Below the pieces are notes generated by a model that saw nothing but the letters and a program-made list of their open reading frames with translations, ran no database searches and was not told the DNA's origin. From the IMG/VR virus record IMGVR_UViG_3300045988_070752: a DNA stretch of 41,776 bases. One strand, written 5' to 3'. The position numbers and the translations under genes are program-made. Shown here in pieces: positions 1,341 to 19,268 of this stretch. The stretch is from a virus. Position 1 is the first letter of the stretch. Every line of letters begins with the position of its first letter.

Positions 1341-3194
1341 CTACGATACGCTGGCTCTTGATGCCGTTTTTTCTTTGGCATTTGCGACTATCCCTTTTGT
1401 GTCCACCGGATCTCCCAGTGAGTTTGTTTTTGCACTTCCGGCTGTCATCTGGCCTGTGCTTGGTTCTCCCCGTCCCATTGATGCTGCCGCGTTTTGTGCT
1501 ATGGTTGATCCATTCTGGGCGTCCACGATTGTCGCAAGCTGCATTACTGTCTGCTGTAACTGCTGAATCTGCTGATACATGGTGCCGTTTTGCGATACCC
1601 TCTGTATTACCAGGTCTTTGCCGTCAAAATCCATCATCTGCAGCATGGCCAGTGCCTGGTCTGACAGCTCCGGATTAAATACACCCGCTGAATATAACTC
1701 TTTGGCCAGTTCGTTCTGCGCTACCTTGCTGTATGGTGACGCTTTTTGCGCTGATACCTTTATGTCGTATGTCGGTTTTCTTTCTCCAAATTCCACGCCT
1801 GCTATCCCTTTTTGGGCTTGTGATCTCATCATCTGGTTGGAGAATTGCGGCCATGTTGTCTCTCCATTGTCCCCGATCACCCGAAAAGTCCGCGGCTCAT
1901 TGTAAAACTGTCTGATCCTCTCTATCACCAGGCGTACCAGGCAGGAGTAGGCGTTGTATGTCATGCGGATCATATCTCTTGACAGCTTCCCGGATGCTTC
2001 CTGCAGGGCGGCAATGGCCGATGCCGCTGTAACAGATGAGGTTGTCCCCTGGGCGTAGCTTGTGTTTCCTGATGTTTCTTTGATTTCGTCTATTTTTCCT
2101 GCCAGTCGGTTGTAAACCGCCGAATCCAGCCCTGCCAACTGCTGCTGCCGTAATCTATCATCCGACACCATACCCTGGACATGTACGATCGGTCCATCTC
2201 CCAAAAACTCCTCTTCATTCAGTCCCAGCCCATCCGTCACAAACCACCTGGGCTGTGATGTCCTTTTTGCATGCCGCAGGATGATGCCGTCCATCTTGTC
2301 GATAAACATCTGCGGATCTTTCATCACGTCCAGATACCCAAATCCTGCCGGGCTTTCCTTTTCCGGGAACATTACGTCCAGTTTGATCGGATACTCATCA
2401 TTTTCATAAAATCCGTTCGCGCAATTCTCGTCATTTTCTGAGGCGTACAAAAGATGTCCCTCGATAAACTTGATATAGTGGATCACTGTCCTGCTGCCTA
2501 TTTGCTTTTTGTAATAACAATCATATACAGAGGTCTGGTTTGTCCTGTCTACATAGTCCTCGGATTCATAGTGTGTCTGCGGTGTTTCATCTGTTCCTGG
2601 CCCCTCTAAAAACGGATACTGCATCAACAGATCGTCGTTATCTTTTAGCGCTGTCACAAATATGTATTTTGACTGTTCCAGATCCCTTATTCCTGGCTCC
2701 CAGTACAGGTTCATCATGTCAATTTCTTTTACATCTACATCTCCCAGACCGTTATCTATCCCCGGATTCCAAAAAACCCCAAAGGCCGAGGTTCCTGTCT
2801 TTAGTTTGCTCCACCAACCGTCCGAATAGGCCTTTTCGTAATTGCACTTTTCCAGGATTGTCGGTACGATCTTTGACAGCATGCTTGCTGTTTCCTGGTC
2901 TGATTCCTCCTGCGGCAGCACGTTTGGAGCCGGGAAGTTGTCCATAGCATCTGCATGCTTGTTAATAAGCATGTTAAACAGATAGGCGCTTGCTGGTTCG
3001 TCCTCTTCTTTTCGCAGTTCCTTCCAGTGCTGCGCCTTATACCATGATTCTGCTGATTTGATCCTCTGGTTTAGCACCTGTTTGCCCTCGCTGTAATCCT
3101 GGAATACCTTGTAGAGCTTTTTGATATCCTCATCCGTAATAGCCCCGGTGCTTCTCGGTTGTGTGTCTACCGTCTTTTTTGTTACATCTGCCAT
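1341..3194 (-). CDS. Portal protein
   Basis: 617 aa. The start overlaps the terL stop by 13 nt. Size and position (terL -> portal -> protease -> scaffold -> capsid) are canonical. No motif-level proof. Confidence 0.75.
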   Translation of the reverse strand: MADVTKKTVDTQPRSTGAITDEDIKKLYKVFQDYSEGKQVLNQRIKSAESWYKAQHWKELRKEEDEPASAYLFNMLINKHADAMDNFPAPNVLPQEESDQETASMLSKIVPTILEKCNYEKAYSDGWWSKLKTGTSAFGVFWNPGIDNGLGDVDVKEIDMMNLYWEPGIRDLEQSKYIFVTALKDNDDLLMQYPFLEGPGTDETPQTHYESEDYVDRTNQTSVYDCYYKKQIGSRTVIHYIKFIEGHLLYASENDENCANGFYENDEYPIKLDVMFPEKESPAGFGYLDVMKDPQMFIDKMDGIILRHAKRTSQPRWFVTDGLGLNEEEFLGDGPIVHVQGMVSDDRLRQQQLAGLDSAVYNRLAGKIDEIKETSGNTSYAQGTTSSVTAASAIAALQEASGKLSRDMIRMTYNAYSCLVRLVIERIRQFYNEPRTFRVIGDNGETTWPQFSNQMMRSQAQKGIAGVEFGERKPTYDIKVSAQKASPYSKVAQNELAKELYSAGVFNPELSDQALAMLQMMDFDGKDLVIQRVSQNGTMYQQIQQLQQTVMQLATIVDAQNGSTIAQNAAASMGRGEPSTGQMTAGSAKTNSLGDPVDTKGIVANAKEKTASRASVS

Positions 3195-4612
3195 CCTTTC
3201 GCTCCTTTTCCCGGCCGCAGATCTAGGGGATCGTCGCCGTAATTATCTTTTTTCATCTCGTTTTTTCTCTGCTTGATCGGATCTGCCATGAGCACATATC
3301 TGCACTCGTCGTAAATGTGATCCTCTTGTGTTGTGTCGATATCCTCCACCTTTTTCTCGTCATATACCAGTGACGGTATTGTGCGGATAAAGTCCTTGCA
3401 TGTGTTAAAAACATAAAACATGGATTTCCCATTTTTATCAAAGGCTAACCTATAGTGATACTGCATCTTTCCGGCAATTCTTGTGTTGTCCCCAGGCTCC
3501 CAGTATACCCTCTCCTGCATCATCTGGTCTGCTACGGATTCCCCTCTTGATCTGTCAAATATGGATGGGTCTGCGATTGCCCTTATCTTCCTGCCCTTTA
3601 GGTTTTCATCGGTTTCTTCCACCTCTCGGATTCCTTTTGCGATCTCGTGCGGGTCTATCATGATTCCCGTGTTTGGCTGATTTGGTTTGCATCCGTACCA
3701 CCCTCTTATCCTGTACATGCATCCATCTGGATCCGCTGCGTACCAGCCGACGGAAAAAGGTTTTGCGTATCCAAAGTCAAACCCCCGGTAAAACCTCCAG
3801 TACGACGGCACCTGGAAGGGCTCTATGACGTGGGTGTACCTGTGATCTTCGTAATGATCTGGATCATTTACCCATTCTGTAAACACCTGACCCTCAAAGC
3901 TGTCCCAATTCCCATAGAGCAGCGCCTCTCTTTCTGCTTCCGGCTTCATGGCCAGGTCTGCCAGATATGCCGGGTTATTGTCCAGGAGCTTCTGGTTGTC
4001 GAATATCGTGGCCGGTACATAGATGCGGCTCCTCTCTACCTCTTTTGTTGATCCGTCCGGCATCCTGACTGCTGCAGTCTCCCACAGCGTTGTCATAGGT
4101 TTTGCCGGGGAGACAAATCTTTCTTTTACCCAGCCGTGTCCCACGCCCCCAGGGTTTGCCGTTGACCTGGAATATACTTCCGTTCCCGGGCCGGAGGCTC
4201 TGTTTCTCGTCAATATGTATTCGTATTGGCTTTGTGTAAAATGGGTTAATTCGTCAAATCCAATAAAATCGTACTGCTGCCCTTGATAATCATATTTGTT
4301 CTGCTCGTATTGGCAAGAGCCAAACTTTACCTTGGCACCTGACGGGAATTTCCACGTGTGCTCCTGGGTGTTGTATTTTGCTTCCGGCCACACCGGTTTG
4401 TAATATTGCTGTGACTTTTCTATCAGCTCTGACAGCTGCGGGTATGTACGCCGCAGGATCAGTCCTTTGTAATTTGGGATGTTTACCTGGCGCAGCGCCT
4501 CAATCACAAGGGCGTCCGACTTCCCGCCGCCTGCTGCCCCGCCGTATAATGCCTCATCTTCCCAGCGCTCCATGAACAGGCTCTGCTTGTACTGCGGTGT
4601 CCATATGACCAT
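3182..4612 (-). CDS. terL: Terminase large subunit
   Basis: 476 aa. N-terminal Walker A-like YGGAAGGGKSDA, a DELTHF Walker B-like segment, and a C-terminal nuclease-like acidic region. Follows terS. Confidence 0.9.
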   Translation of the reverse strand: MVIWTPQYKQSLFMERWEDEALYGGAAGGGKSDALVIEALRQVNIPNYKGLILRRTYPQLSELIEKSQQYYKPVWPEAKYNTQEHTWKFPSGAKVKFGSCQYEQNKYDYQGQQYDFIGFDELTHFTQSQYEYILTRNRASGPGTEVYSRSTANPGGVGHGWVKERFVSPAKPMTTLWETAAVRMPDGSTKEVERSRIYVPATIFDNQKLLDNNPAYLADLAMKPEAEREALLYGNWDSFEGQVFTEWVNDPDHYEDHRYTHVIEPFQVPSYWRFYRGFDFGYAKPFSVGWYAADPDGCMYRIRGWYGCKPNQPNTGIMIDPHEIAKGIREVEETDENLKGRKIRAIADPSIFDRSRGESVADQMMQERVYWEPGDNTRIAGKMQYHYRLAFDKNGKSMFYVFNTCKDFIRTIPSLVYDEKKVEDIDTTQEDHIYDECRYVLMADPIKQRKNEMKKDNYGDDPLDLRPGKGAKGWQM

Positions 4613-5330
4613 CTGGCCTCTCCTTTCTCTTTGTGATCTCTATCCGGTTTTCTGTGGCTTTTGTTTCTTTTGGCTGGTTTACCGTCAGCCACTCCAGCGC
4701 TTTTTGACTGTCCTTTAGCTGTACCTGTATGCCAAATTTTGTATTTTTTATAGATTTGATGAGTGTCCCGTCTATCTCATCCGCATCCCGCAGTATCACC
4801 ACCCCGTCTTCCAGGTTGACAAAATCTTTTATATCCGCCGTGGCGATGTCTATCTGCTTTTGCGCTATGTCCTGTATAGTAAATTCTATGTTTTCGTGCA
4901 AATCCGTTAATAGTTCGTCAATTCTTGCTTTTACATCAATATTTTTCGATAAATTAGAGGCGTTTCCGCACGCCGTTTCATATGAGCAGCTGAAAGCTTT
5001 TTGGTATGCCTTTACCTTGTTGCGGTATTTTACGTAGTACAGGCAAAAAAGCTCTCTTTTTTCTGTAATATCCAGATCGCGGTCCTTTTCCCTCTTTTCT
5101 TCTTTAATGGGTTTTTGCTTTTTCTTTTCCGAACGTTCGCTTTTTCTGGCCGAACGTTCGCCATCCCAGCCATCCTCACATTTCCACCGGCGGATCGTCC
5201 CGGCTGGCACTCCAAGTGTCTGTGCGATCTCGACAAGCTTTTTTCCTTTTTTGTACATAATCAGCGCTTCATTTTTCTTTTTTCTTGTCTCTTCCTTTGT
5301 CACACCGGCGGTCACCTCCTTCTCAATCAT
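4554..5330 (-). CDS. terS: Terminase small subunit with N-terminal HTH
   Basis: 258 aa. HTH-like KKGKKLVEIAQTLGVPAGTIRRWK, then a Terminase_2-like ELFCLYYVKYRNKVKAYQKAF segment. Overlaps terL by 59 nt. The true start could be an internal Met. Confidence 0.75.
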   Translation of the reverse strand: MIEKEVTAGVTKEETRKKKNEALIMYKKGKKLVEIAQTLGVPAGTIRRWKCEDGWDGERSARKSERSEKKKQKPIKEEKREKDRDLDITEKRELFCLYYVKYRNKVKAYQKAFSCSYETACGNASNLSKNIDVKARIDELLTDLHENIEFTIQDIAQKQIDIATADIKDFVNLEDGVVILRDADEIDGTLIKSIKNTKFGIQVQLKDSQKALEWLTVNQPKETKATENRIEITKRKERPDGHMDTAVQAEPVHGALGR

Positions 5331-5370
5331 TTTATCTGATGTTCGTTTTTTATTCTCCCTTTTACTGCGT

Positions 5371-5395
5371 AAAAAAGCAGGGAGCCTGTCCCCGC
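5371..5395 (-). terminator. Intrinsic terminator upstream of terS (minus strand GCGGGGA-caggc-TCCCTGC + TTTTTT)
   Basis: 7-bp stem (one G.U pair on the minus strand, A.C mismatch on the plus strand) followed by a T6 run on the minus strand. Lies between the small leader ORFs and terS. Confidence 0.6.
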
Positions 5396-5414
5396 TTTTC
5401 TTTTATGCTTTTTT

Positions 5415-5579
5415 CTATTCTATAAATTTTTCCAGTTCCTCGTCTGTCATTTCCTCCGCTTTCCTCCTGGCGGTGATCGGCTCCATCTCCAGCTCGCCAA
5501 TCATATAGCCGAATGCAATATCTTCCAAAATGTGCCGTCTTTCTCTATCCATAATTTTTCCTTTCTGGTCTGCCATCAT
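5415..5579 (-). CDS. Small hypothetical protein (54 aa; alternative start at 5552)
   Basis: Below the ORF-track cutoff, translated by hand: MMADQKGKIMDRERRHILEDIAFGYMIGELEMEPITARRKAEEMTDEELEKFIE. RBS AAAGGAAAA precedes the internal ATG at 5552. Confidence 0.4.
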   Translation of the reverse strand: MMADQKGKIMDRERRHILEDIAFGYMIGELEMEPITARRKAEEMTDEELEKFIE

Positions 5580-5628
5580 CAGCGCCGGGAGACCATCCCG
5601 CAGCGGACGCCCTTGCGGGCGTTTCGGC

Positions 5629-5793
5629 TTAGAGGCTTTTCACCGTTTCCCACTCGGTTATTGCCGCCGTTGTGTCCAGATATTCGATTCTCAACCTTAC
5701 TATCTCTCCTTCTCTTTCATTAATCGTGTATCTATAGTTTCTTGTGTCCACTGTTCTTTCTTTTATTACTCTTTCGTAAAATTTGTTTGTCAT
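5629..5793 (-). CDS. Small hypothetical protein (54 aa), first gene after the late promoter
   Basis: Hand-translated: MTNKFYERVIKERTVDTRNYRYTINEREGEIVRLRIEYLDTTAAITEWETVKSL. Strong RBS AGGAGGAAAAGAAC-ATG. Confidence 0.5.
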   Translation of the reverse strand: MTNKFYERVIKERTVDTRNYRYTINEREGEIVRLRIEYLDTTAAITEWETVKSL

Positions 5794-5837
5794 GTTCTTT
5801 TCCTCCTGTTTTTGTTTTTCCTGTTCTTGATGATTCT

Positions 5838-5866
5838 ATTATATTATATTTGCGTAAATATATCAA
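5838..5866 (-). promoter_or_regulatory. Sigma-A-type promoter TTGATA-17-TATAAT reading toward the packaging/structural genes
   Basis: Minus strand: -35 TTGATA (5866..5861), 17-nt spacer, -10 TATAAT (5843..5838). Overlapped by operator copy 1. Confidence 0.65.
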
Positions 5867-5929
5867 TCGGCAAAATGCACATATTTGCGTAAATATATTT
5901 GTGCAGTATGTATATTTACACAAATATAT
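5846..5929. promoter_or_regulatory. Three palindromic operator-like sites ATATTT-N4-AAATAT(AT)
   Basis: ATATTTGCGTAAATATAT at 5846..5863 and 5881..5898 (identical). ATATTTACACAAATATAT at 5912..5929. Sites 1 and 3 overlap the divergent promoters. Confidence 0.75.
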
Positions 5930-5943
5930 TATTGTGATATTAT
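5915..5943 (+). promoter_or_regulatory. Promoter TTTACA-17-(TGa)TATTAT for the RHH cassette
   Basis: -35 TTTACA 5915..5920, 17-nt spacer, extended -10 TGaTATTAT ending at 5943. 21 nt upstream of RBS AAAGGAGG and the ATG at 5965. Confidence 0.65.
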
Positions 5944-5964
5944 GTATTTAAAGGAGGTGCTTGA

Positions 5965-6153
5965 ATGTCAGGTACTACTAAAGCATCCCAGAGGGCCGTG
6001 AACAAATACATAGCCAATAACTATGATCGCCTTAACATCACGGTCCCGAAGGGGAAAAAGGATAAGTATAAATTAGCCGCAGAGGCCGAGGGAAAGAGTT
6101 TGAATGCATTCATTGTGGAGTGCATAGAAAAAAGAATGGAGGAACGGGAATGA
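5965..6153 (+). CDS. Ribbon-helix-helix (Arc/CopG-like) DNA-binding protein
   Basis: 62 aa. Beta-strand RLNITVPKG, then helices KDKYKLAAEAEG / KSLNAFIVECIEKRM, the classic RHH layout. Strong RBS. First gene of a 3-gene plus-strand operon. Confidence 0.75.
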   Translation: MSGTTKASQRAVNKYIANNYDRLNITVPKGKKDKYKLAAEAEGKSLNAFIVECIEKRMEERE

Positions 6154-6353
6154 AAAAAAGATATGTCGTAAAAGGCTATTCTTACAATCTTAAAAAAAAT
6201 ATAAATCGCACTTATTATGAAGACGAAATCTCTCAATTTGACGGAAAGTATGCGGAGCTTAATGGATCCTGTATGTGCGTTGCGAACCGGTTCCGTGATA
6301 TTCCCAGATTCAGGCAGGGCGAATTCTCGATTGAAGAGGTAAAGGAGGGTTAA
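6150..6353 (+). CDS. Small hypothetical protein (67 aa)
   Basis: Its ATG overlaps the RHH stop (ATGA coupling at 6150..6153). MKKRYVVKGYSYNLKK... No family recognised. Confidence 0.55.
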   Translation: MKKRYVVKGYSYNLKKNINRTYYEDEISQFDGKYAELNGSCMCVANRFRDIPRFRQGEFSIEEVKEG

Positions 6354-6354
6354 C

Positions 6355-6642
6355 ATGTATATCCAGGGTGTTGGAAACATTAAAAAACAGGATGCGATGA
6401 GCATCCTGACAAAAGAAGGACGCCAGGCAGTTGAGGGCGGAGAAATCACACTGGAAGAGCTCGGACAGATGTATAAGTTGGAGCTTGTCAAGAGGTCTAG
6501 CAAAATTGGCCGTTTCCCCGACACTTTCCTGGAAAGCTATAAGTGGATCCCGGAGGATCTCAGAATCCAGCTTGCGCCGAATCAGTTAGCTGCGCTTGTG
6601 GATAGCTTTCACGAATGCTACGGTGCAGGAAAGAACGCATAG
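6355..6642 (+). CDS. Small hypothetical protein (95 aa)
   Basis: RBS AAAGGAGGG, starts 1 nt after the previous stop, followed by a terminator. No family recognised. Confidence 0.6.
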   Translation: MYIQGVGNIKKQDAMSILTKEGRQAVEGGEITLEELGQMYKLELVKRSSKIGRFPDTFLESYKWIPEDLRIQLAPNQLAALVDSFHECYGAGKNA

Positions 6643-6644
6643 TG

Positions 6645-6672
6645 AAAAAGAGCAGGGAATCCTGCTCTTTTT
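6645..6672. terminator. Bidirectional intrinsic terminator AGAGCAGG-gaat-CCTGCTCT
   Basis: 8-bp perfect stem flanked by A5 upstream and T4-rich sequence downstream, so there is a U-tract on both strands. It ends the plus-strand RHH operon and the minus-strand ncRNA locus. Confidence 0.8.
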
Positions 6673-6697
6673 CTTGTTCTTAATAGTTATTGCTACC

Positions 6698-6733
6698 ATT
6701 TCAATCCGCGCCGGTAAGAATTGCTAACCGAAC
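6698..6733 (-). repeat. CRISPR-repeat-like unit 2: GTTCGGTTAGCAATTCTTACCGGCGCGGATTGAAAT
   Basis: 36 nt on the minus strand. 5-bp stem TCGGT/ACCGG at the same position as in unit 1, 11-nt loop starting TAGCAA, identical 13-nt tail CGCGGATTGAAAT. Confidence 0.6.
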
Positions 6734-6801
6734 CACAGCGCAAAGCATCTTTTGCACTGGACTTATTAAAAGCATTTCTGCTCTTAATCTTTACTGTCAC
6801 T

Positions 6802-6836
6802 ATTTCAATCCGCGATCCCCGGGTTGCTAGGGATAC
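6802..6836 (-). repeat. CRISPR-repeat-like unit 1: GTATCCCTAGCAACCCGGGGATCGCGGATTGAAAT
   Basis: 35 nt on the minus strand. 5-bp stem ATCCC/GGGAT, 10-nt loop, 3' tail CGCGGATTGAAAT. The tail resembles the GTGGATTGAAAC/T end of type I-C repeats (from memory). Confidence 0.6.
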
Positions 6837-6871
6837 CACAATACATAGCATCCAATGTATTGGACAATTTC

Positions 6872-6900
6872 TTTATATCACATTTTGTTCTTAATGTCAA
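6872..6900 (-). promoter_or_regulatory. Near-consensus promoter TTGACA-17-(TGa)TATAAA driving the ncRNA locus
   Basis: Minus strand: -35 TTGACA 6900..6895 (overlaps the stop of the 6897..7217 ORF), 17-nt spacer, extended -10 TGaTATAAA (6877..6872). Confidence 0.7.
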
Positions 6901-7217
6901 TTCTTTCTCCTGATTTTTACTTCCAGCACCTTCCCGTTTTCCATCACTGGTTTCACTTCCAGCTCGTTTTCGTCCGCTCCTTTGATTTCTTCCAGGCTTA
7001 ATGAGATTTCCTGTCCTTTCCCGATCAGCCGCTTGGCCAGCGCCGTCACGTATCGCATTGTCTCCTGGTTGACTGCTGCCGTTCTGGTAATCTCTTCCCT
7101 TGCTCCGATCTCCAGCTTCATACATTCTTTTGCTAGCATTTCCGCCGTATCAAACCTACGTTTGTAATATTTTACATTCTCTTTTTCTTTTTTCAGTCTT
7201 TTTGCAAGTGTTTTCAT
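6897..7217 (-). CDS. Hypothetical protein (106 aa), last gene of the early operon
   Basis: ORF-track ORF. Charged, coiled-coil-like. Its start overlaps the upstream stop by 4 nt. Confidence 0.55.
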   Translation of the reverse strand: MKTLAKRLKKEKENVKYYKRRFDTAEMLAKECMKLEIGAREEITRTAAVNQETMRYVTALAKRLIGKGQEISLSLEEIKGADENELEVKPVMENGKVLEVKIRRKN

Positions 7218-7423
7218 TCTTCCTCCATCAGCCTTTTTGCATGTTTGCAGTTTTTGTAGTTAAATGATTCACAAAATCTCCTGCTGTGTGTGATCCGTTC
7301 TGTCTCATTTTTAAATCCTATGGCGTTGTCTGTATCTTTGTACAGGCCCTGGCATCGTATTTCATTCTCTCTGTTTCTCTTTTTCTTGTAAAATGGGCAT
7401 ATTACAATCTCTTTGCTGTTCAT
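7214..7423 (-). CDS. Small Cys-rich hypothetical protein (69 aa from the ATG at 7423)
   Basis: MNSKEIVICPFYKKK...IRCQG...FCESFNYKNCKH, possible metal-binding cysteines. RBS GGGAG/GAGG upstream of 7423. Confidence 0.5.
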   Translation of the reverse strand: MNSKEIVICPFYKKKRNRENEIRCQGLYKDTDNAIGFKNETERITHSRRFCESFNYKNCKHAKRLMEEE

Positions 7424-12438: not shown

Positions 12439-12659
12439 TTCTTCTCCTTATAGGGCTTTGGCAGCTCCATCCATGCTACCGGGTTCGGATTTTCCCACAT
12501 AGGGTATTCTCCCAGCATCCACCCTTCTTTCGGAAGATAAGATGCGATCATTATGGCTTCTTCCAGTATCGTCCTGGCGTCTGGTCTCCCGCTTATCTGT
12601 ACCAGTACAAATCTGTCTGTACCCGGTAATTTGTCCTCGACTGGTATCCATTTACACAA
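12435..12659 (-). CDS. DUF551-like phage protein
   Basis: 74 aa. WIPVEDKLPGTDRFVLV...VAWMELPKPY, the W..v.d.LP...W..LP.p pattern of DUF551. Confidence 0.6.
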   Translation of the reverse strand: MCKWIPVEDKLPGTDRFVLVQISGRPDARTILEEAIMIASYLPKEGWMLGEYPMWENPNPVAWMELPKPYKEKK

Positions 12660-13062
12660 ACGGCAATTCCTCCTCTATTCCGTCAGGGATGTTCATGAAT
12701 CCGTCCCCAACTCCCGGGGCCGGCTTTTGCTCGTTGTTTGCCGCCTTGCTCTCTGCAAACTCCATTTCCTCTACCATGATTTGCACGGCGTATACCTTAT
12801 GGCCGTCCCGATCTGTGTAGTTGTTGTTCTCAACTCTTCCGGTTATGAGCATCTTTATCCCCTTTTTCAGATATTTTTCCACAAACTCTGCCTGTCTGCC
12901 GAAGCACACGCAGTTGAAAAAGTCCGCATCCGGGCTGCCGTCTTTCTTAAACCGCCTGTCTACTGCCAGCGAAAACCGGCCAACTGCTGCCGCCTCCGGA
13001 TCCTGCGGGTATCTGATCTCCGGATCTCTGGTCAGCCGCCCCATTAAAATCACTTTGTTCAT
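12652..13062 (-). CDS. ssb: Single-stranded DNA-binding protein
   Basis: MNKVILMGRLTRDPEIRY...FFNCVCFGRQAEFVEKYLKKG OB-fold, plus the acidic C-terminal tip DGIEEELPF. Confidence 0.92.
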   Translation of the reverse strand: MNKVILMGRLTRDPEIRYPQDPEAAAVGRFSLAVDRRFKKDGSPDADFFNCVCFGRQAEFVEKYLKKGIKMLITGRVENNNYTDRDGHKVYAVQIMVEEMEFAESKAANNEQKPAPGVGDGFMNIPDGIEEELPFV

Positions 13063-13466: not shown

Positions 13467-14170
13467 ATCCGTAACCTCACTTTCTTCATGGTATATTGCA
13501 TATATGGATACCCGGTCACCGGGTTTATCCCTGTTATGATGCTGTCTTGATCCACGTAGTAGCCTTTGTATGGCCGTATCTTTTCTGGATCAAACCTTTT
13601 TATATCTTTCTTTATGGGCCTTGGCTCTTTTAAATTTCTGGAACAGATGTATTTCATCCGCTCCTGCCCGGTGTCTTGCTGCATGATATAAGCCGCTAAC
13701 TGTGCATATTCCCCGGAATCATCCAGCATGGTCATATGCACCCGGCCCTTCTTCCAATGCTTTCTTGCCAGGTTCGGCGTGTCAGTGATTCCATTCAGAA
13801 TCACATGGGCGTGCACTGCCCCTCTCTCCCCGATCGCCACCACGGCGATATATTTCAGCGGTTCCCCTGCCTTTTTGTAGTAGTACCGCAGCCTGTCCAG
13901 CCATTTCCTGATCTGGATCATGGCCTCTTCCATGGTGCAGCGCTCTTCCCGACGGTATGTAAGTACGAGGTGATAGTCGTTCTGGCAAAAGTTCATATTG
14001 ATCTTTCGCCGGATCCTTTTTAGCCGCTGCCTCTCATTATTTCGTTTTACTTCCTCTGGCGTTGGCTTCTGTCTCTTTCCTCTCTCCATCCCCGGGGCGC
14101 CGTACCTGCCTTTGTGGGTGATCTCCACCTCTATGCTCTGCGGCATCCTGTACTCTGTTTTTTTGTACAT
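13463..14170 (-). CDS. HUH-superfamily Rep-like protein (putative rolling-circle replication initiator)
   Basis: Three ordered motifs: YHLVLTY (motif I-like), GAVHAHVILNG (HUH motif II) and EYAQLAAYIMQ (Tyr motif III-like). Basic N-terminus. Adjacent to ssb. Confidence 0.55.
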   Translation of the reverse strand: MYKKTEYRMPQSIEVEITHKGRYGAPGMERGKRQKPTPEEVKRNNERQRLKRIRRKINMNFCQNDYHLVLTYRREERCTMEEAMIQIRKWLDRLRYYYKKAGEPLKYIAVVAIGERGAVHAHVILNGITDTPNLARKHWKKGRVHMTMLDDSGEYAQLAAYIMQQDTGQERMKYICSRNLKEPRPIKKDIKRFDPEKIRPYKGYYVDQDSIITGINPVTGYPYMQYTMKKVRLRI

Positions 14171-14280
14171 GCTTTACCCCTAAGTTTAATATCCTAATCA
14201 AGGGAGAAAATCCGGTAAAATCCCCGGAATTCCTTGCTTTTTCCCTTGCTTTGTGATATGATTTATTTGTAATTAATTAC

Positions 14281-14319
14281 AGCACCGGTCGAGTTTCCCC
14301 TAAGTACTTGCCCGGTGTT
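14281..14319. other. Stem-loop AGCACCGG-(23 nt)-CCGGTGTT with CCCCTAAGTACTT in the loop; candidate origin/nick site
   Basis: In the 150-nt gap upstream of the Rep-like gene. TTTnCCCCTAAGT recurs at 14173..14185 and 14294..14305. AAGTACTT in the loop is palindromic. Confidence 0.35.
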
Positions 14320-14321
14320 TT

Positions 14322-14528
14322 TTATACTCTCAATGCCTTTCTATAGGCCTTGACCTGGCCTTTTAAGCTTGTCACCTTATTCGAGAGCTTCACGATCGCT
14401 TTCTTGTATTCTTCTGCCTGGGAGGCGTAGGCCGCAGCCATGTTTTTGTTTTCCTCCTTTGCTTCCTGGAGCAGCGCTTTCAGCTCCCCGATTTCTTTTT
14501 TCATTCGAATCTCTTCTTTTTCTTCCAT
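14322..14528 (-). CDS. Coiled-coil hypothetical protein (68 aa)
   Basis: RBS AAAGGAG. Heptad-like K/E/A/L-rich sequence. Confidence 0.5.
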   Translation of the reverse strand: MEEKEEIRMKKEIGELKALLQEAKEENKNMAAAYASQAEEYKKAIVKLSNKVTSLKGQVKAYRKALRV

Positions 14529-14695
14529 CGTTTTCTCCTTTCTATTCCTGCGGCCAGAAACACCAAGGCTATTCCCATTCCCCGCAGGTAATCCATTGTC
14601 CCTATCGTCTCCAGCTCATAGGATTCTGTTACCGCAGCGGCAAGCAGGAAGCCCACCGCCACGCAACCCATTCTAATTGCCATTATCACTCGCAT
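14501..14695 (-). CDS. Small membrane protein (64 aa, two hydrophobic helices, basic C-terminus)
   Basis: GCVAVGFLLAAAV and GMGIALVFLAAGI segments, then RRKRWKKKKR. Confidence 0.45.
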   Translation of the reverse strand: MRVIMAIRMGCVAVGFLLAAAVTESYELETIGTMDYLRGMGIALVFLAAGIERRKRWKKKKRFE

Positions 14696-14852
14696 GTGCT
14701 CTTTCCCTTTCCATCAGTACCAATGCTGCCATGTCATGGATCTTCTGCATTCTTTTTTTCCTTTCCTCCGGTGTTAAGATCGGCCGGTGAACTCTTGCCG
14801 TCCATCCATCCCCCTTTATGGTATATGGTGGATAATACTTATCTCCCTTCAC
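14673..14852 (-). CDS. Small hypothetical protein (59 aa, GTG start)
   Basis: The GTG overlaps the upstream TGA (GTGA). VKGDKYYPPYTIKGDGWTARVHRPILTPEERKKRMQKIHD... Confidence 0.4.
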   Translation of the reverse strand: MKGDKYYPPYTIKGDGWTARVHRPILTPEERKKRMQKIHDMAALVLMERERAHASDNGN

Positions 14853-15025
14853 AGCTTCACTCTCCTTTCTACGTTGTAGGTCGCCGGGTTCAGTCTGGCG
14901 TGCATCACCGTCACAACCTCCCTGGTGTCCAGATCTATATAGGTTTCCATGTAGTCCCAATCCTTTGAGTACATCTTGGATCTTGGTGATAAGTTAAATC
15001 TTGTGATCGTCAGCTGATGCTTCAT
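14849..15025 (-). CDS. Small hypothetical protein (58 aa)
   Basis: Hand-translated MKHQLTITRFNLSPRSKMYSKDWDYMETYIDLDTREVVTVMHARLNPATYNVERRVKL. RBS GGGAGGGGAG. Confidence 0.4.
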   Translation of the reverse strand: MKHQLTITRFNLSPRSKMYSKDWDYMETYIDLDTREVVTVMHARLNPATYNVERRVKL

Positions 15026-15152
15026 GTTTCTCCCCTCCCATCATGGCTGCCATTCCCTCGGCAAGCCCGAGAACATACTCCTGCTTCTTCTCCGGTAACT
15101 TTGGGATAATCTCCCGGAAACTTTCCAGAATTTTTAATTCCATTTCACTCAT
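14994..15152 (-). CDS. Small hypothetical protein (52 aa)
   Basis: Hand-translated MSEMELKILESFREIIPKLPEKKQEYVLGLAEGMAAMMGGEKHEASADDHKI. RBS AAGGAAG. Confidence 0.4.
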   Translation of the reverse strand: MSEMELKILESFREIIPKLPEKKQEYVLGLAEGMAAMMGGEKHEASADDHKI

Positions 15153-15166
15153 TTGCTCACTTCCTT

Positions 15167-15517
15167 TCATAAATAATTCACGCCGAACTCTCTCATGAAG
15201 AGCTCGTGGCTGTATTTTTCTTCAAACATTTCCTGGGCATGCTGTTTCAGAATCAAATCCATCTCTCTGTCCCTGTGTACGCCTTTGTTTCCTTCGTGGT
15301 GTTCGTAGCAGAGCCAAGCTTTCAAGCCGTATTCTTCTGACTTTGCCCTGTTTGCCGTACCTCCAAATATATGATGCTGGTGCGCGCCCCGTGCAGGTCC
15401 CACACCCAGAAGATTGCACAACAGGCATTCCCGATCTCCCGGATCCTGCAGGATGCTTGCAGGATGGTTTTTTTTCTTTTTCTTTATCGGAGTTTTTGGA
15501 AACATCATTCCTCCCAT
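15167..15517 (-). CDS. Putative HNH-type nuclease
   Basis: CLLC...HQHHIFGGTANRAKSEEYGLKAWLCYEHHEGNKGVH, a Cys/His-rich HH...C..HH arrangement recalled from the phage HNHc family. Confidence 0.45.
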   Translation of the reverse strand: MGGMMFPKTPIKKKKKNHPASILQDPGDRECLLCNLLGVGPARGAHQHHIFGGTANRAKSEEYGLKAWLCYEHHEGNKGVHRDREMDLILKQHAQEMFEEKYSHELFMREFGVNYL

Positions 15518-16591: not shown

Positions 16592-16647
16592 TTTTTTGTT
16601 GATTTTTTTTCTTCTCGGTGTTAATCTGTATTCAGGAGGTGAATTAT

Positions 16648-17016
16648 GTGACGCAAGGCGAACGTGTAAAAGAAGTGCGCAAATCTCTCGATCTTACTTT
16701 GGAAAAGTTCGGCGAACGGCTCGGTGTTACAAAGGTGGCCATTTCCAATATAGAGAATGGTAACCGTAGTCTTACCGACCAAATGCAGAAATCCATCTGC
16801 CGGGAGTTCAATATTTCGGAGGATTGGCTCCGGGACGGAACCGGCGATATGTTCGTGGATCTGTCCAGAGATCTCCAGCTGGCAAGATTCTTCGGAGAGG
16901 TGCAGATTGACGAGGGCTTCAAGAAGCGATTTATTTCTGCTCTTTCCACTATGACCGTGGATGAATGGGCTTTTATAGAGCGTAAGATGAGAGAAATTTT
17001 CGAAGAGGATGTGTAA
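16648..17016 (+). CDS. XRE/CI-like HTH repressor (122 aa, GTG start)
   Basis: TQGERVKEVRKSLDLTLEKFGERLGVTKVAISNIENGNRSLTD is a canonical XRE HTH. AGGAGG lies 8 nt upstream of the GTG at 16648. Divergent from the early operon. Confidence 0.85.
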   Translation: MTQGERVKEVRKSLDLTLEKFGERLGVTKVAISNIENGNRSLTDQMQKSICREFNISEDWLRDGTGDMFVDLSRDLQLARFFGEVQIDEGFKKRFISALSTMTVDEWAFIERKMREIFEEDV

Positions 17017-18548: not shown

Positions 18549-18692
18549 TATAAATCACTCCCTTATGCATCCAATTATGCACAAAGTTGTTGGTTTTGTA
18601 ATTAGTTACTCTTTATTTTTTATCACCAAAATTTTTTGATTATTTTGTCCTTCAATTTACTCAAAATTTTGTCTTGGCAAAGGGGCGATTCT

Positions 18693-19268
18693 ATGAAAGA
18701 CGTATTGGAATATACGCAGCTCACGGCCAGGGCTCTTCTTACGACCCGAGACCTGGCAGGGCACACGCAACAGTACATGGCAAGAAAGTTGTCAAAAAGT
18801 GTCGGGACTATTCAGAATTGGGAAAATGAAATTGGTGCTCCCAGTCTTCCTCTCATTCTAAAATGGTTCGAATTATGCGGCGTTGATCCCGAAAAATACC
18901 TGATGTTTATCTATAACCCCGGAAAGTATCATCTGCTTTATGAGGCTAAATCCGATGAGGATATCGACGCCGCCCTGCGGATGTATCTGGATACAGAAAT
19001 TCCGAAGCATAAAAAGATGCTGCACTACATCATCTTCGGTGACCATATCTCTCACTGGATCCCGAAGCTGCACCTTTTCACTGCGCACAGCCACATTCCG
19101 CTTCTTGACCGTGTGTCTGCTGCCGGTATTGTTATGGATATCTACCGGATGCGCCGTGCCAGAGATGAGCTTACCGGCCCCGATGACCCTCTGCCTGATG
19201 AGGATATTGTCCAAAAAGCAGTTGATTCTGGAAGAGAATCCGTGTATGTTAAAAAAGAGAATTATTAA
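18693..19268 (+). CDS. HTH (XRE-like) regulator, 191 aa, upstream of the integrase
   Basis: GHTQQYMARKLSKSVGTIQNWENEIGAPS helix-turn-helix. RBS AAGGGG before the ATG at 18693. 18 nt upstream of the integrase gene. Confidence 0.65.
   Translation: MKDVLEYTQLTARALLTTRDLAGHTQQYMARKLSKSVGTIQNWENEIGAPSLPLILKWFELCGVDPEKYLMFIYNPGKYHLLYEAKSDEDIDAALRMYLDTEIPKHKKMLHYIIFGDHISHWIPKLHLFTAHSHIPLLDRVSAAGIVMDIYRMRRARDELTGPDDPLPDEDIVQKAVDSGRESVYVKKENY

Follow-up and report, generated by a model that had tools for sequence, protein, structure and literature searches.

A ribbon-helix-helix-led, probably autoregulated phage cassette with exchangeable cargo and a convergent CRISPR-repeat-like RNA

The virus sequence IMGVR_UViG_3300045988_070752 from IMG/VR, analysed here over its full length of 41,776 nt (the window), carries a cassette of three small plus-strand genes. 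It is led by RHH62, a putative regulator of the ribbon-helix-helix (RHH) type, which is followed by two small genes, p67 and p95. Two divergent promoters with three palindromic operators lie in front of the cassette, and a convergent structured RNA lies behind it. The parts of the locus are the following.

5866-5861 (-35) and 5843-5838 (-10), minus strand: divergent promoter, TTGATA-17-TATAAT, 11/12 matches
5846-5863: operator O1, ATATTTGCGTAAATATAT (ATATTT-GCGT-AAATAT plus AT), filling the spacer of the minus-strand promoter and touching its -35
5881-5898: operator O2, ATATTTGCGTAAATATAT, identical to O1, between both promoters
5912-5929: operator O3, ATATTTACACAAATATAT (ATATTT-ACAC-AAATAT plus AT), covering the -35 of the cassette promoter
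5915-5920 (-35) and 5938-5943 (-10), plus strand: cassette promoter, TTTACA-17-TATTAT with TG extension, 10/12 matches, conserved in relatives
5965-6153, plus strand: RHH62 gene, 62 aa, pI 9.4, with the Shine-Dalgarno sequence AAAGGAGG
6150-6353, plus strand: p67, a basic 67-aa ORFan whose start overlaps the RHH62 stop in ATGA, translationally coupled
6355-6642, plus strand: p95, a conserved 95-aa ORFan starting 1 nt past the p67 stop
6644-6673: bidirectional intrinsic terminator, 13-bp stem, U-tracts on both strands, serving the cassette and the convergent RNA
6645-6865, minus strand: convergent structured RNA of ~200 nt, two tandem units at ~6802-6863 and ~6698-6760
6900-6895 (-35) and 6877-6872 (-10), minus strand: RNA promoter, TTGACA-17-TGaTATAAA, read directly from the sequence and conserved in the related loci L003 and L004

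A good Shine-Dalgarno sequence precedes each of the three open reading frames (ORFs), and all three genes are under purifying selection, with non-synonymous variation (pN) of 0.06-0.23 against synonymous variation (pS) of 0.38-0.80. The RHH-led plus-strand operon with coupled small genes that the initial annotation described is thus borne out in its ORFs, its overlaps and its RHH fold.

The operator sequence is confined to this locus. Allowing at most one mismatch, ATATTT-N4-AAATAT occurs three times in 41,776 nt, and all three occurrences lie inside one 82-bp stretch. The shuffle expectation is 0.18, and none of 100 shuffles reached three. The three palindromes reported earlier at 5846, 5881 and 5912 are therefore present and exclusive to this stretch of the window. 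Their centre-to-centre spacings are 35 bp (O1 to O2) and 31 bp (O2 to O3), and O2 precedes the inferred start site of each promoter by ~50-65 bp. The half-site centres within each palindrome, read from the sequence, are 10 bp apart, which is the geometry of Arc and Mnt tetramers. The two divergent promoters are the top matches of the promoter scanner in the region, and the scan bears out the overlaps first noted by eye, of O3 with the cassette -35 and of O1 with the spacer of the divergent promoter. The latter promoter reads into a 54-aa ORF, a hammerhead ribozyme and a further small ORF, followed by the genes for the small and the large terminase. In relatives, its -35 is invariant and its -10 is TATAAT or TACAAT.

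Comparison with related phages indicates how these operators are used. We assembled ~130 related loci, among which 50 viral loci encode a p95 homologue. The RHH gene recurs at 86-98% identity in five IMG/VR phages (L001-L005). None of the six half-sites changes in the intergenic regions of these phages, and the central N4 varies between GCGT, GTGT, GAGT, ACGC, AAGC and ACAC. Invariant half-sites around a variable N4 are, at the level of sequence, the typical trace of recognition by a symmetric protein. The 50 p95 loci extend this picture to other regulators. The leader gene encodes an RHH protein in 26/50, belonging to several unrelated sequence families, and a protein with a Cro/C1-type helix-turn-helix (HTH), HTH_26, in 22/50. 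In a common promoter scaffold, at least eight families of regulators are each paired with a separate motif, present in 2-8 copies in the 220 nt upstream. Examples of such motifs are TTAAGCACTAA, TAAGGCACTTAT, TCACT-N-AGTGA, AATTGAGTA, ATTGCAAT, GCATAGTT and TGATATCA. No regulator family has the motif of another family in its upstream region in these 50 loci. Regulator family and operator motif co-vary one-to-one, and the copies lie over both divergent promoters.

Because the half-sites are invariant and regulator and motif co-vary, it is well supported that RHH62 autorepresses the cassette and controls the divergent promoter, and we consider this regulatory part of our interpretation quite probable. 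The same two observations, half-site invariance in five relatives and co-variation over 50 loci, uphold the proposal of the initial annotation that the RHH protein is autoregulatory and reaches over the divergent promoter. In nine loci (L006, L010, L014, L019, L021, L022, L035, L037, L044), a gap of ~100 nt after the regulator gene holds extra motif copies, which implies a second regulated promoter for the cargo. The window cassette does not have such a gap, its three genes being coupled. In loci of the L006 type, one copy of the motif also lies directly next to a divergent-strand promoter of the extended -10 type.

RHH62 matches PHROG 13890 (4.5e-16) and the Arc-like PHROG 3178 (2.8e-6), and several Arc-like repressor PHROGs are found among its matches. 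The Pfam families HicB, TacA, Arc and RHH_5 all remain just below threshold. PF10723 and PF07878 are found in homologues at ~60% identity. The closest PDB sequences are Mnt (E 0.15), CopG and AmrZ, all of them weak matches. Together, the profile matches and the operator geometry support the assignment of RHH62 as a putative RHH regulator. It is a minimal RHH protein that ends right after helix 2, without a C-terminal tail, and its N-terminal segment is conserved.

The two proteins encoded downstream belong to no known family, as had been noted initially, and none of the family and structure searches returned a match for either. For p67 and p95 alike, there is no match in Pfam, PHROGs, NCBIfam or PADLOC, and p67 has none among the PDB sequences. 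A Foldseek search of the p67 model against the PDB also gave no match, which is uninformative because the model is poor (pLDDT 58.7). For p95, the AlphaFold model is confident (pLDDT 89) and shows an N-terminal beta-hairpin followed by six helices. Foldseek against the PDB and BFVD gave nothing credible for it (best E 0.16), and a PDB profile search was also empty. The structural check suggested for these proteins thus yields a reliable model without a credible match for p95 and a model too poor to inform for p67. A 'DUF3887' label carried by some p95 homologues in nr was not reproduced by Pfam at E<=1.

The two genes also differ in distribution. Homologues of p95 fall into 281 clusters, and its mean column identity is 84%. 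Between phages that differ in genome type and size it stays above 60% identity, and no other cargo gene of this cassette type is as common. p67 is rare, with three homologue clusters (81-99% identity) and a copy of 65-67% identity in L042 behind a different RHH gene. An exhaustive profile search revealed distant relatives of the p95 domain that are fused to an N-terminal XRE-type HTH or a RelB-type RHH (P0128, P0137, P0139, P0201, P0202, P0210 and L062 4001-4489). The fusion gene of L062 has its own promoter with repeated CAATGT motifs, and no repeat-like RNA is found nearby. In L065, a gene with a weak match to the RVT_1 reverse transcriptase (3225-4481, minus strand) lies ~1.6 kb downstream of an HTH-p95 fusion gene.

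Cargo genes are freely exchanged. Phages that are near-identical on both sides of the cassette retain the RHH gene and p95, and p67 is replaced by genes for 82+79-aa or 92+79-aa proteins. Over all loci, more than 20 small ORFan cargo families are shuffled before and after p95. The pI is below 5 in 11 of 19 families. About 20 cargo families gave no match in Pfam, PHROG, NCBIfam or PADLOC, and PDB sequence searches of two swapped-in proteins returned nothing real. Matches of one p67-replacing protein to designed proteins in the PDB were dismissed, as they contain no significant stretch. p95 itself is a frequent but dispensable cargo.

The orientation of the module also varies. In a separate group of phages of 55-60 kb, it is co-oriented with a following conserved ORF of ~224 aa (family F2), and in the window it is divergent from the terminase genes. 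F2, which has no Pfam or PHROG match, is tentatively read as terminase-small-like. Should F2 belong to the packaging genes, the two phage groups would have the module in opposite orientations with respect to these, and it would behave as one portable unit. We rejected an integron-like reading of the locus, as the structured element stands at the end of the array only and not after each gene. Arrays of one to five tRNA genes lie downstream of the cassette and F2 in eleven of the 55-60-kb relatives (L006, L009, L011, L016, L021, L026, L035, L037, L043, L047, L058). They are mostly 3-5 kb downstream of p95 and within ~0.6 kb in L043.

The convergent RNA is a component of the module. Each of its two units consists of hairpin A (loop UGGAUGCU), the sequence GUGGU, hairpin B (loop AGCAA...) and then ...GGAUUGAAAU. 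Over 22 distinct units from different phages, compensatory changes are found in 8/10 pairs of hairpin A. Many of its pairs are G-U, which supports transcription from the minus strand. Hairpin B occurs with at least six different stem sequences. The RNA promoter was missed by the scanner because the last base of its -10 is A. RNA units ending in GGAUUGAAAY (GGATTGAAA[CT]) are present in 44/50 p95 loci, directly after the cassette, always antisense and nowhere else in the locus. A reverse search from the RNA pattern alone found p95 upstream in the same relative orientation in 20 of 25 loci with enough flank. The remaining five have an RHH- or HTH-led cassette with other cargo and no p95. The survey for conservation of the cassette next to the RNA locus, as initially proposed, thus came out positive in both directions. 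The description of an adjacent CRISPR-repeat-like RNA locus holds for this linkage; the RNA itself is transcribed convergently from its own promoter and is not a part of the cassette.

The last 10-14 nt of the RNA and the GTGGTA motif match published CRISPR repeats. The 3' end resembles the Clostridium thermocellum repeat GTTGAAGTGGTACTTCCAGTAAAACAAGGATTGAAAC, listed under I-B, and the type I-C repeat ...GCGTGGATTGAAAT (PMC3737339). Rfam gave no CRISPR-DR or other family for the RNA at E<=10. No cas-like gene was found among the ORFs examined, and the window as a whole was not scanned for cas genes. Host repeats of the form GUGGU...ACAAGGAUUGAAAY or ...GCGUGGAUUGAAAU would support the link to CRISPR. 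An 11-nt sequence, TTGTTCTTAAT, is found both at 6885-6895, in the spacer region of the RNA promoter, and at 6674-6684, just after the handle of unit 1. This identity is compatible with chance, or it could mark a self-targeting pseudo-spacer.

Taken together, the best explanation of the comparative sequence data is that the locus is one copy of a portable, self-contained accessory-gene module of gut Clostridia phages. Such a module would combine a promoter-operator region that fires in both directions with a leader repressor, exchangeable ORFan cargo, a terminator for both strands and a convergent RNA. In our reading, it is an accessory operon, expressed early and under its own control, with cargo that most likely acts against host defence. 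We lean towards this statement as a whole by a small degree. The counter-defence function of the cargo, taken for itself, falls a little on the doubtful side of balance. The following mechanism is envisaged. On phage entry, host RNA polymerase would fire the cassette promoter, and RHH62, p67 and p95 would be made from one coupled mRNA. Accumulating RHH62 would bind the three 16-bp palindromes, each site taking up a pair of RHH dimers in the manner of Arc and Mnt. Binding at O3 would occlude the cassette -35 and close a negative feedback loop, and binding at O1 would occlude the spacer and -35 of the divergent promoter, whose transcript heads for the terminase genes. O2 probably adds cooperativity. 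p67 and p95 would be the effectors, most likely in host interference or counter-defence, delivered in an early, dose-limited pulse as in acr operons controlled by anti-CRISPR-associated (Aca) proteins. The neighbouring RNA is a candidate decoy of the Racr/Cracr type. The anatomy of the sequence, its conservation, the co-variation of regulators and operators, the shuffling of cargo and the linkage to the RNA are observed directly. In this scheme, DNA binding and repression, the timing of expression and any anti-defence activity are what we infer.

A more specific version would make the cassette and the RNA together an undescribed portable anti-CRISPR island, in which a repeat-mimic RNA is combined with interchangeable inhibitors including p95 and p67, and exchangeable RHH/HTH repressor-operator sets also gate the divergent hammerhead-containing operon. 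We regard this combined proposal as possible and rather doubtful.

Several observations weigh against counter-defence and against the regulatory model behind it. The acr/aca-like reading of the initial annotation fits in its architecture, with an autorepressed promoter, ORFan cargo and a linked RNA; a match to a known anti-CRISPR (Acr) protein is what it lacks. p67, p95 and the cargo families show no homology to a known Acr or anti-defence protein in Pfam, PHROGs and NCBIfam (all proteins), in the PDB sequences (p67, p95 and two cargo proteins) or by Foldseek (p95 and p67). The regulator gene comes first in the cassette, and aca genes are usually last in their operons. The conservation of p95, at 84% mean column identity, is unusually high for an Acr. 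The RNA runs towards the cassette from a promoter of its own, in contrast to RacrIC1, which is co-transcribed. There is no obvious release mechanism in the model for a strong, repressed promoter that faces the terminase genes. Finally, the closest non-phage homologues of RHH62, at 63% identity, lead operons with Fic and zeta-like genes.

These homologues bring up the question whether the cassette is a prophage toxin-antitoxin, abortive-infection or superinfection-exclusion module, with RHH62 as antitoxin and p67 and/or p95 as toxin or exclusion factor. The RHH-first layout, the overlapping genes and the palindromic operators are all consistent with such a module, as are the sub-threshold matches to the antitoxin families HicB and TacA and the position of the 63%-identical homologues in front of Fic and zeta-like genes in chromosomal islands. 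However, the Fic-linked homologues bear extra acidic C-terminal tails which RHH62 does not have, so that it is without a neutralising tail beyond helix 2. The same RHH gene stands before unrelated genes (L003-L005), near-identical p95 is found behind unrelated RHH or HTH genes, no toxin or defence family is matched in Pfam or PADLOC, and fusions of p95 to DNA-binding domains are unexpected of a toxin. With no toxin family match, no antitoxin tail and no fixed gene partners, the toxin option that was initially listed does not stand up, and we judge the module reading distinctly improbable. The homologues themselves (L071-L075, 3501-5168) head an operon with Fic-domain, zeta-toxin-like and 64-aa proteins that adjoins an integrase fragment in bacterial contigs and resembles a toxin-antitoxin island. 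The proposal of a generic early host-takeover or moron cassette, whose cargo would inhibit or redirect host processes such as transcription, replication, division or repair next to an independent RNA, with RHH62 doing no more than limiting its dose, accounts for the own promoter, the own terminator and the orientation opposite to the flanking genes. Small acidic ORFan cargo would also fit inhibitors of uracil-DNA glycosylase, RNA polymerase or nucleases, and no cargo protein matches a known Acr. Against it are the linkage of cassette and RNA, tight and fixed in orientation in both search directions even in inverted modules, and the extreme cargo turnover, which is more typical of arms-race loci. 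We treat the takeover proposal as unlikely.

Two further proposals assign p95 a dedicated partner. In an antirepressor switch like immI, p95 (or p67) would bind a prophage repressor and RHH62 would act like Arc or Mnt. An RHH protein with palindromic operators at divergent promoters beside late genes is what such a switch would look like, Mnt is the best PDB sequence match of RHH62, albeit a weak one (E 0.15), and small antirepressors are known. But neither p67 nor p95 contains an Ant, KilA or BRO domain in Pfam or PHROGs, no fold match was obtained, and a second, divergent RHH gene is missing. More than 60% identity of p95 across phage types is unexpected for the partner of a specific repressor, and p95 is missing from the cassette in 5/25 RNA-anchored loci. 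As the downstream genes are moreover swapped among near-identical phages, the immI-like reading of the initial annotation is not sustained, and we give it hardly any weight. Alternatively, p95 might serve the convergent RNA as a partner that binds, stabilises or delivers it, for example, and be no effector in its own right. Both the two-way co-occurrence (44/50 and 20/25 loci) and the unusual conservation of p95, expected for the partner of a conserved RNA, speak for this. It is opposed by the five RNA loci that have a cassette but no p95, by the p95-domain fusions in loci without the RNA, and by the outcome of the Foldseek searches, in which no RNA-binding fold was detected for p95. The five loci in particular weaken p95 as an obligate RNA partner, and a partnership of this kind appears very improbable. 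We retain the autoregulated accessory operon, with cargo most likely directed at host defence, as our preferred interpretation.

The wider context of the cassette includes the following features.

3182-4612: large terminase gene
4554-5330: small terminase gene
5415-5579, minus strand: next small ORF of the divergent transcript, probable true start at 5552
5564-5629, minus strand: type II hammerhead ribozyme, scoring 59.9 bits (gathering score 37)
5629-5793, minus strand: divergent 54-aa ORF, downstream of the divergent promoter
12-14 kb and 18 kb: genes for a single-stranded DNA-binding protein (SSB) and replication
16.6-20.8 kb, plus strand: HTH repressor candidates and a large serine recombinase
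16618-17016 and 18636-19268: the individual HTH repressor candidates

The window looks like a complete genome of a temperate siphovirus-type phage (~41.8 kb) that encodes almost all of its genes on the minus strand. On one side of the cassette the early/replication block ends, its last ORF being at 6897-7217 (minus strand), and on the other side the leftward packaging block starts. It had been called the only plus-strand operon outside the lysogeny module. This is borne out in part: the plus-strand ORF at 12553-13047 is spurious, because SSB is encoded there on the minus strand, and the region 14170-15167 is ambiguous. This stretch of ~1 kb contains no convincing gene. Two ORFs lie in it, one of 199 aa on the plus strand that opens with TTG and one of 95 aa on the minus strand, neither of them with a family match. 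The stretch could represent an origin or a further gene on the plus strand.

The hammerhead lies within the divergent transcript between the 54-aa ORF, which has no RHH or other family match in Pfam or PHROGs, and the small ORF at 5415-5579. Cleavage is predicted after 5606. Among the related loci, L001, L002, L004, L006, L009, L016 and L021 likewise carry the ribozyme in their divergent operon. The divergent operon beside the cassette in the 55-60-kb phage group holds the same hammerhead, and a nucleotide search of the phage collection with 5300-7300 gave the hammerhead segment as its sole match. In a scan of genome collections, the hosts are metagenome-assembled genomes of Lachnospiraceae and Ruminococcus and one Selenomonadaceae bin. 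The phage hosts thus appear to be Lachnospiraceae and Ruminococcus, gut Clostridia.

To our knowledge, anti-defence biology in the Lachnospiraceae and Ruminococcus hosts of such phages has hardly been explored by experiment. If the locus is a counter-defence island, p95, p67, at least 20 cargo families and the RNA would provide many candidates for inhibitor families from abundant human-gut phages. Whatever the function of the cargo, the at least eight regulator families would represent a natural set of orthogonal repressor-operator pairs that could serve as parts for Clostridia genetics, and the locus can help to explain how phages exchange regulatory cassettes. A regulator placed over a strong, terminase-facing promoter further raises the question of how the transcription of packaging genes is timed.

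Among known systems, immI of phage P22 (arc-ant/mnt) combines RHH dimers of dimers on palindromic operators with divergent promoters near late genes. The window differs from immI by having no Ant homologue and no second repressor gene, and by its freely exchangeable cargo. With type II toxin-antitoxin systems of the CopG, RelB, HicB and TacA type, the cassette shares the leading RHH gene, the overlapping genes and the palindromic operators. In contrast to these, it has no neutralising tail and no recognisable toxin, and its partners are not fixed. A further similarity is seen with the AcrIIA22 islands of clostridial prophages, where one gene is retained amid turnover of small ORFans (PMC8545432). 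Both are found in gut Clostridia and share this retention of one gene, and the cassette adds to it regulator and operators of its own as well as the RNA linked to it. No sequence similarity to PDB entries, which are assumed to include AcrIIA22, is seen for p67, p95 and two cargo proteins.

Racr and Cracr RNAs are recognised by similarity to CRISPR repeats, a promoter within 250 bp and the absence of cas genes nearby, and they cluster with acr genes, as RacrIC1 with AcrIC5 and CracrIF with AcrIF24. The RNA of the window is likewise a phage repeat-like RNA with its own strong promoter and linked small protein genes, and tandem units also occur in some Racr/Cracr RNAs. Unlike these, it is convergent with the protein operon, and each of its units has an extra conserved 5' hairpin and a loop of 10-11 nt inserted in the repeat-like part. 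The closest parallel to the regulatory design is offered by Aca operons, which like the cassette have an operon-encoded DNA-binding repressor, inverted repeats over a strong promoter and small variable ORFs. The window differs from them in that no Acr is validated, the regulator comes first and three operators span two divergent promoters. Aca14 (WP_005725436.1) is an RHH regulator that represses its own and the neighbouring operon (bioRxiv 10.64898/2026.07.27.740549), a description that the putative regulator RHH62 would fit. The fusions of p95 relatives to HTH or RHH domains parallel the self-regulating Acr-Aca fusions described in the same work.

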